Below are positions 38,201 to 39,267 of a DNA stretch of 64,000 bases, in pieces (the first letter of the stretch is position 1; every line of letters begins with the position of its first letter). The stretch comes from Escherichia phage vB_VIPECOOM03: the sequence record OQ721911; one strand, 5' to 3'. The position numbers were made by a program, and so were the translations under genes. The notes under the pieces are model-generated. The model searched no databases. It was not told where the DNA came from and saw nothing but the letters and a program-made list of their open reading frames with translations.

Positions 38201-39061
38201 TTACACCGCCATTTTTCCTTTCAAGACACCATGGGACTGATAATCTTTGAGAACGAAATCTCGCGCTGTCATATATTCAGTTAACCAATACATTTGAGTT
38301 TCAGTATCGCATTGACTGAATCCATTAGGCCAATTAATACTGAGTTTGCACAGGTCCATAGGGGTTCTATTTAATATCTCTTTGCATTGCTCAATATGGT
38401 TAGAATAAATGTGTGTATTGCCGCCCGAGAATATCAAATCGCCCGGAACTAGTTCACACATGTCAGCAACAATATGTAAGAGAGCAGCATAGCTCGCGAT
38501 GTTAAATGGAAGACCGAGGAAAACATCTACCGAGCGTTGATACCATTGGAGGTCAAGGTATCCGTTACGAACATTAAACTGATAGAACATGTGACAAGGT
38601 GGTAATGCCATTTGCTTAAGTTCAGCTGGATTCCACGCTGACACAATTTGACGCCTATCGTTTGGAAATGTTTTAATACGATTAACAACTTCTACAATTT
38701 GGTCTACACCGCCAAAATCACGCCATTGTTTTCCGTAAATTGGACCAAGTTCACCACTATGATATCCTAAATCTTTTGCTTGATTTTCGTAATTTTCATC
38801 CCAAATCGTTTTTCCAGCAATTAAAGATCCATGAGTACGTTTACGTAGATCATTTACGTTAGTACTTCCTGACAGAAACCATAGTAACTCAGAAATACAT
38901 GCATTCCAAGCGAGCTTCTTAGTCGTTACTGCAGGAAAACCTTTAGTTAAATCCCAGCGTAATTTAGTACCGAACAAAGCAATTGTTCCTGTGCCTGTTC
39001 GGTCATCGGTTTCGTAGCCATTTTCTAGAATATCTTTAATTAAAAATTGGTATTGTTGCAT
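38201..39061 (-). CDS. td: Thymidylate synthase, uninterrupted
   Basis: 286 aa from the ATG at 39061 ([26 protein letters not shown]); catalytic PPCH motif (ALPPCHMFYQF); the ORF-track start at 39073 is a TTG. Confidence 0.93.
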   Translation of the reverse strand: MQQYQFLIKDILENGYETDDRTGTGTIALFGTKLRWDLTKGFPAVTTKKLAWNACISELLWFLSGSTNVNDLRKRTHGSLIAGKTIWDENYENQAKDLGYHSGELGPIYGKQWRDFGGVDQIVEVVNRIKTFPNDRRQIVSAWNPAELKQMALPPCHMFYQFNVRNGYLDLQWYQRSVDVFLGLPFNIASYAALLHIVADMCELVPGDLIFSGGNTHIYSNHIEQCKEILNRTPMDLCKLSINWPNGFSQCDTETQMYWLTEYMTARDFVLKDYQSHGVLKGKMAV

Positions 39062-39267
39062 TAGTTCATCCAAGAATATGTAGAAGGATATTTGGCAAAG
39101 TTAGGCTTATATCCTAATTTAGTCATTTGTTTTGCTTTGCGAGTAAATCCTAAAGAACGCTCACCTTTAAGATATTGTTTTGGTGTCATAGGCCCTTGAT
39201 GCATCTGCCGACAAATAAAAAGGGCCATAGCATTAGGAACATCCTTAACTTTTAATTTATTGCTCAT
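39061..39267 (-). CDS. Small basic hypothetical protein between frd and td
   Basis: 68 aa [68 protein letters not shown]; start overlaps the frd stop (ATGA) and stop overlaps the td ATG (TAATG). Confidence 0.5.

Follow-up and report, generated by a model that had tools for sequence, protein, structure and literature searches.

Organization of the frd-td Junction

The stretch of DNA analyzed here (the window) comprises 64,000 nucleotides (nt) of Escherichia phage vB_VIPECOOM03 (record OQ721911), and the element under study is a reading frame of 68 amino acids (aa), designated ORF68, that lies between the genes for dihydrofolate reductase (frd) and thymidylate synthase (TS; td). All genes of the locus are on the minus strand. 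ORF68 (39061..39267, including the stop codon) is preceded by frd (39264..39845), whose 193-aa product matches Pfam DHFR_1 (E 3.5e-19) and has 91.7% aa identity to T4 Frd, and is followed by an intron-less td (38201..39061; start ATG at 39061-39059, stop codon at 38201-38203), whose 286-aa product matches Pfam Thymidylat_synt (E 1.8e-94). The gap between frd and td is filled end to end by ORF68, which is initiated by an ATG. This ATG overlaps the TGA of frd in the sequence ATGA (39264..39267), and a like overlap with the upstream gene is found in phages JS10, CIP9 and 4S. At the other end, the TAA of ORF68 and the ATG of td have one base in common in the sequence TAATG (39059..39063). The Trp-Met codons near the C-terminus of ORF68 contain the Shine-Dalgarno-like sequence GGATG (39067..39071), which is located 5 nt before the td ATG and may function as its ribosome-binding site.

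The ORF68 product is small (7.9 kDa) and strongly basic, with 13 Lys and Arg against 2 Asp and Glu residues, an isoelectric point (pI) of 10.26 and a net charge of about +11. An earlier sequence-only reading of this DNA had described a basic 68-aa ORF that fills the whole gap with ATGA and TAATG overlaps, and the ORF calls and the composition agree with that description. The same reading had regarded the genes as coupled. This stands for the architecture, because stop/start overlaps are present at both frd/ORF68 and ORF68/td; as a function, translational coupling of ORF68 to td would be a suggestion drawn from that architecture.

The GC content of ORF68 (0.348) and that of the window (0.361) correspond to a native base composition, at which the chance of 68 stop-free codons is about 0.009. 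Patterns for T4 late promoters and MotA boxes were searched for in 38900-40200 and gave no match, and no promoter- or terminator-like site was found inside ORF68. RNA folds around both junctions did not exceed shuffled controls in stability (z -0.30 and +0.44) and included no stable hairpin that would hide the start of td or ORF68, and an Rfam search at the junctions gave no match.

Conservation and Annotation of ORF68

The coding nature of ORF68 is evident from its pattern of change. When eight copies were compared in a codon alignment by the Nei-Gojobori method, the ratio of nonsynonymous to synonymous substitution rates (dN/dS) was 0.08-0.28 for inter-genus pairs, the synonymous sites were near saturation between genera, and insertions and deletions within ORF68 were multiples of three. 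The product matches the hidden Markov model (HMM) of phrog_9550 (PHROGs v4; no assigned function) with an E-value of 5.2e-45, residues 1-68 falling on positions 1-68 of the 68-position profile, and all 23 aligned relatives of ORF68 match the same profile. A word-indexed homologue search returned close relatives only. An exhaustive HMM profile search, which covered 1.84 billion representative proteins, added ten further real clusters, each of which consists of stand-alone proteins of 70-96 aa and never of a domain of a bigger protein; the match to a repeat protein, P0026, in this search was judged spurious. Homologues from metagenomic clusters are 33-44% identical to the ORF68 protein, and the pattern common to the family is M(S/K)(N/G)xKxKV…P…L.(C/A)R..HQ…K(G)…(F/L)G(F)…A..M..LGY.P. 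As judged from these sequence comparisons, ORF68 is protein-coding and is under purifying selection over its full length. The proposal of the sequence-only reading that ORF68 is a genuine gene without a counterpart in T4 thus agrees with the dN/dS values, with phrog_9550 and with the T4 comparison described below.

ORF68 is already known: it is annotated in more than 100 GenBank genomes and is a member of phrog_9550, from which it does not differ. A 601-nt query over the locus was 100% identical to Escherichia phage vB_VIPECOOM01/02 (OQ721909, OQ721910), in which the order of features is dihydrofolate reductase, hypothetical protein, thymidylate synthase, and the whole query was covered by 135 of the 568 matching records. 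A tblastn search with the ORF68 product found 237 phage records, including approximately 133 with at least 95% identity (Tequatrovirus phages of Escherichia, Shigella, Yersinia and Salmonella), JS10 (Dhakavirus; 97%), Klebsiella phages such as Marfa (approximately 80%), Enterobacter phage CIP9 (68%), Serratia phage 4S (60%) and approximately 70 records of the Phapecoctavirus type (phAPEC8 and relatives; approximately 43%). In the roughly 135 Tequatrovirus records, the gene is mostly annotated as "hypothetical protein." The members of phrog_9550 include the vB_VIPECOOM01 hypothetical protein (OQ721909), Yersinia phage fPS-65 g232c, Klebsiella phage Marfa gp177 and phAPEC8_0028, and in T4-like phages the family occupies the same position upstream of td as ORF68. 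The view that ORF68 is an extra gene in the operon therefore survives in part: it has no counterpart in T4, T2 or T6, but it is not unrecognized (OQ721909, the roughly 135 records and phrog_9550), and as a claim of novelty it largely fails, because the ORF is a known, annotated gene in other T-even phages. A search of one literature library for phrog_9550, the frd-td locus and the peptide found nothing specific, and the ORF68 sequence is missing from the supplements of one accessory-gene screen.

Several records treat the gene differently. The JS10 homologue is unannotated (NC_012741; 2501-2707 of locus L008), and that of ACG-C40 is annotated as a truncated form of 42 aa (1579-1707 of locus L014). 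In Shigella phage sb4, ORF68 (1501-1707 of locus L012) is broken by a stop codon and td is split as well, which probably reflects sequence errors.

Three States of the frd-td Junction

T4 (NC_000866) has no ORF between frd and td, which share ATGA in a direct overlap, in accord with the sequence-only reading, and in a pairwise alignment the window and T4 differ by exactly 204 nt. The ATG at which td begins in T4 is, in the window, the start of ORF68, and the sequence upstream of it is shared (…GGAATCAGTATA[C/T]AAATGA…). Accordingly, both phages have the same initiation region, with the frd stop codon over an ATG; unlike in T4, the 204-nt ORF68 is interposed in the window and td restarts at the second overlap, TAATG. 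The second codon of td is CAA in the window and AAA in T4.

A third state is found in T2 (AP018813) and T6 (AP018814), which carry a different ORF of 115 aa between frd and td (ORF115; RB32ORF229c, phrog_1928, Pfam-blank; 2743-3090 of T2 locus L004 and 5969-6316 of T6 locus L005, with a CIP9 homologue at 1826-2161 of locus L006). Like ORF68, ORF115 is a small gene of unknown function that occupies this slot and is missing from T4. It differs from ORF68 in that its sequence is unrelated, in that in T2 it does not overlap td but is followed by 45 nt of AT-rich spacer, and in that it is commoner. Of 60 records drawn as a spread sample from the 514 that match the T4 junction, approximately 3 had the empty junction of the T4 type (T4 records and HY03), approximately 40 had the T2-type interruption and approximately 15 were of the ORF68 type, and these proportions agree with the approximately 363 records that contain ORF115 at 90% identity or more and the approximately 135 that contain ORF68.

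The direct frd/td overlap of T4 is a rare state, present in roughly 5% of records, and the description of ORF68 as "extra" relative to T4 is reference bias. Because more distant T4-like genera carry ORF68 directly upstream of td, the gene was more probably lost by T4 than gained in the window. It follows that "extra relative to T4" is a poor criterion of novelty for T-even genomes. The frd-td junction is better described as a small cargo slot, of which Tequatrovirus shows at least three states and which holds a fuller array in other genera.

ORF68 in Other Phage Genera

In phages Marfa, CIP9, 4S and JS10, the ORF68 homologue is always immediately upstream of td, with stop and start codons that overlap as TAATG in Marfa, 4S and JS10 and as GTGA in CIP9. 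The td-adjacent gene is thus present in five lineages, namely Tequatrovirus, Dhakavirus, Marfavirus, Kanagawavirus and Serratia phage 4S. The window, JS10, Marfa, CIP9, 4S and G3F9 all have TGGATG, which specifies Trp-Met, 5-8 nt ahead of the td start, a position from which it could also act as a Shine-Dalgarno-like element. The interval between frd and ORF68 is more variable: it contains no ORF in the window and JS10, one in Marfa and 4S, and two in CIP9, in which the order is frd, a homologue of T2 ORF115 (44% identity, E 7e-30), a paralogue common to Marfa and 4S, ORF68 and td. Given the CIP9 array, the simplest history starts from an older array of frd, one or more ORF115-like genes, ORF68 and td, and the comparison suggests that Tequatrovirus lineages kept one gene or none of it by differential loss.

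ORF68 also shows signs of lateral exchange between phage genera. The JS10 copy has 96.6% nt identity to that of the window, compared with 80% for the flanking frd and 74% for td, and the identity falls off within approximately 100-200 nt on either side of ORF68, which points to a recent inter-genus recombination patch of approximately 250-350 bp in JS10. The nt conservation of ORF68 exceeds that of frd in four of four inter-genus comparisons and that of td in three of four.

More distant homologues, in the unrelated Phapecoctavirus phages and seven metagenomic contexts, lie in arrays of small ORFs of unknown function, some of them near replication genes. In none of these eight contexts is td within 3-4 kb, and all-against-all BLASTP of the flanking ORFs identified no conserved neighbor of the distant homologues beyond the T4-like genera.

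Mosaic Structure of td and Neighboring Genes

Alignment with the spliced T4 td confirms that the td intron is missing from the window and reveals a divergent 3′ part of td (38204..38512), equivalent to T4 exon 2, which is a recombination patch separate from ORF68. The TS of the window is 90% (aa) and 85% (nt) identical to that of T4 upstream of the T4 intron position, and 58% (aa and nt) downstream of it, and the segment around residues 235-270 is essentially replaced. This agrees with the remark in the sequence-only reading that the C-terminal part of the td product looked unlike T4 TS. Relative to T2, the 3′ 300 nt of td are 62-76% identical, whereas the adjoining nrdA.2 is 96-100% identical. 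Over at least 80% of its length, the td 3′ allele occurs in 25 records only (e.g., Shfl2, PinkRuby and ADUt). Joint travel of ORF68 with this allele was rejected, as in most ORF68 phages the match to the allele is limited to the last 58 nt, and Shfl2, which has the allele, appears to carry the T2-type ORF rather than ORF68.

The intron-less equivalent of the I-TevI homing site is located at 38488-38547 (minus strand, in td). Between -35 and +25 relative to the point of intron insertion, 10 positions differ from T4, and 7 of these are 3′ of that point (CTTCCATTTAACATCGCGAGCTATG in the window and CTACCGTTTAATATTGCGTCATATG in T4), and the CAACG cleavage motif is retained. Mutual exclusion of ORF68 and the I-TevI-bearing td intron was also rejected, because both are present in G3F9 and ACG-C40.

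By BLASTP against the proteins of T4, T2 and T6, the genes of the neighborhood are, in order of position, nrdA (35384-37648), nrdA.1, nrdA.2, td, ORF68, frd, two small ORFs, frd.1 (40457-40699), frd.2 (40754-41155), frd.3 (41186-41413) and gene 32 (41560-42468), all on the minus strand. The first small ORF beside frd (85 aa; 39845-40102, minus strand) belongs to phrog_3183 and is 96-99% identical to ORFs of T2 and T6; T4 lacks it. The second (119 aa; 40087-40446, minus strand) matches Pfam DUF7247 and phrog_3566 and is 73% identical to an ORF of T6; T2 and T4 lack it. With two further non-T4 ORFs next to frd, the whole frd neighborhood is therefore a hotspot of gene presence and absence. The frd.2 product has 98% aa identity to T4 and T6 and 64% to T2, and the segment 40873-41197 is only 65-76% identical to T2 at the nt level, which marks another mosaic patch. 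Because several independent recombination patches are present, the locus is a mosaic. The suspicion that it had been reshaped by recombination is thus upheld by the alignments with T4, T2 and T6.

Predicted Structure of the ORF68 Product

An AlphaFold2 model based on a 22-sequence alignment (mean predicted local distance difference test score, pLDDT, 81.9; predicted template modeling score, pTM, 0.56) contains three short helices at residues 13-24, 29-38 and 43-50. Confidence is lower for the basic N-terminal tail (residues 1-10; mean pLDDT 68), and the C-terminal tail, which is extended and aromatic, is predicted to pack back onto the helices. A Foldseek search of BFVD with the model found its own family only and no other fold match, a sequence-profile search of the PDB gave no match at E-values up to 10, and Pfam searches with ORF68 and its 23 relatives gave scattered chance matches only. 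Neither a nuclease family nor a catalytic motif of the GIY-YIG or HNH type was found in the Pfam scans. A metal site is unlikely, because Cys19 and His23 vary within the family. A well-conserved, strongly basic protein of 68 aa that has a confident model and no known fold match is an inexpensive candidate for study, the more so as it is carried by tractable phages, for example the sequenced isolate vB_VIPECOOM01 and phage Paracelsus of the BASEL collection.

Possible Functions of ORF68

We favor the interpretation, at about an even chance, that ORF68 encodes a dispensable, laterally exchanged, non-enzymatic binding protein that is co-translated with td and may act on the host. ORF68 would be co-transcribed with the early frd-td message, and its translation would begin in the region that T4 uses to initiate td. 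After termination at the ORF68 TAA, ribosomes would restart at the overlapping td ATG, aided by GGATG, so that even with the insertion the expression of td would stay coupled to translation upstream. No catalytic motifs are present in the three-helix product, which would most likely act stoichiometrically by binding a macromolecule; binding is preferred to catalysis because the product is too small and featureless for an enzyme. ORF68 is dispensable in that the junction of T4 is empty and T2 and T6 carry ORF115 instead. A host-directed role, such as takeover or counter-defense, is weakly preferred to a role in thymidylate synthesis, because most close relatives lack ORF68, the gene is portable and it occurs among the early small ORFs of unrelated phages.

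It is possible, but unlikely in our estimate, that the product is instead a small nucleic-acid-binding regulator, perhaps helix-turn-helix (HTH)-like, that would bind DNA or RNA of the phage or the host and might, for instance, adjust the expression of early genes or of genes for nucleotide metabolism. The charge and pI of the protein and its conserved basic residues, including K4, K6, R20 and K34, are consistent with this role. Moreover, the model places between two helices a four-residue turn in which the invariant Gly40 is followed by a hydrophobic residue (Phe) and Thr, and the turn of classical HTH motifs has the form LG[VIF][ST]. However, no HTH family of Pfam was matched by any of the 23 members at E-values up to 1, the PDB profile search was equally blank, the fold search gave no support for HTH membership in that no three-dimensional likeness to solved HTH domains was found, and Lys occupies positions that are hydrophobic in a classical recognition helix.

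A functional tie to TS, in which the product would serve TS or the complex for deoxynucleoside triphosphate (dNTP) synthesis as a small subunit, chaperone or regulator, or in which ORF68 would be a device that sets the rate of td translation, is regarded as quite improbable. Its adjacency to td with overlap is retained in five lineages, while the genes between frd and ORF68 differ, and its last codons carry the GGATG sequence for td. Furthermore, Phapecoctavirus phages possess a 43%-identical homologue, and at least one of them encodes a thymidylate synthase elsewhere in the genome (PMC12210895). On the other hand, td is present without ORF68 in approximately three quarters of the records for Tequatrovirus (T4, T2 and T6 among them), and ORF68 occurs with different td alleles, both intron-bearing and intron-less. 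The absence of td near all eight distant homologues also argues against such a tie, and because gene order is generally conserved among T4-like phages, adjacency by itself is weak evidence.

It is very improbable that ORF68 was left behind or carried along by a mobile element, for example as the surviving DNA-binding tail of a homing endonuclease of the free-standing type, or that it guards the locus against homing of the I-TevI intron. The locus does adjoin a known homing site (that of the T4 td intron with I-TevI), the region is mosaic, the JS10 cassette bears signs of having been acquired laterally, and free-standing endonuclease genes are numerous in T4-like genomes (PMC2988022). Nevertheless, the Pfam searches gave no GIY-YIG, HNH, other nuclease or DNA-binding signal, every homologue in the exhaustive search is stand-alone, purifying selection extends over the full length of ORF68, and ORF68 and I-TevI occur together in G3F9 and ACG-C40, so that this interpretation is largely refuted. 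Finally, a chance or non-functional ORF, either an open spacer or a sequence kept for an RNA or DNA element, might be suspected from the short length, the lack of a known domain and the truncated or missing annotation in ACG-C40 and JS10, but chance is ruled out by the exact double overlap together with the conservation, and the interpretation as a whole is refuted by the pattern of conservation (low dN/dS with near-saturated synonymous sites, in-frame indels, and protein similarity that reaches Phapecoctavirus and metagenomic clusters); the unremarkable junction RNA, the blank Rfam search and the low probability of 68 stop-free codons also argue against it.

Several points weigh against the favored interpretation of an accessory, host-directed binding protein. 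The expression of ORF68 and its coupling to td are deduced from gene arrangement, and the binding partner is presumed. Searches of Pfam, PHROGs, the PDB and BFVD identified no annotated relative and no homology or fold likeness that would link ORF68 to a known anti-defense or host-takeover protein. The strict adjacency to td in five lineages could mean a functional tie to TS rather than inherited order, the high nt conservation of ORF68 could reflect strong constraint rather than lateral transfer, and the strongly positive charge is as compatible with the binding of nucleic acids as with that of proteins.

A further interpretation, which we offer as a speculation that is unlikely to hold, is that the phrog_9550 proteins form a hitherto unrecognized class of small basic effectors of phages, with a fold not described before. 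In T4-like phages they would be retained at the head of td because this has them made early and in step with TS, and they would either neutralize a host defense that responds to the nucleotide metabolism or DNA synthesis of the phage or else modulate the machinery of dNTP synthesis. If this were true, the high conservation of the family and its spread to Phapecoctavirus would reflect a strongly selected, portable function.

Comparison with Known T-even Accessory Proteins

Dmd and Arn are small non-enzymatic accessory proteins of T-even phages that bind a host target. The internal proteins Ip1-3 are likewise small T-even accessory proteins that bind a host target (PMC12373910). ORF68 has no similarity to Dmd, Arn or Ip1-3 in sequence or fold, and the likeness is one of genomic behavior only: as with these proteins, ORF68 is small, dispensable, variable in its presence or absence among related phages and located in an early region.
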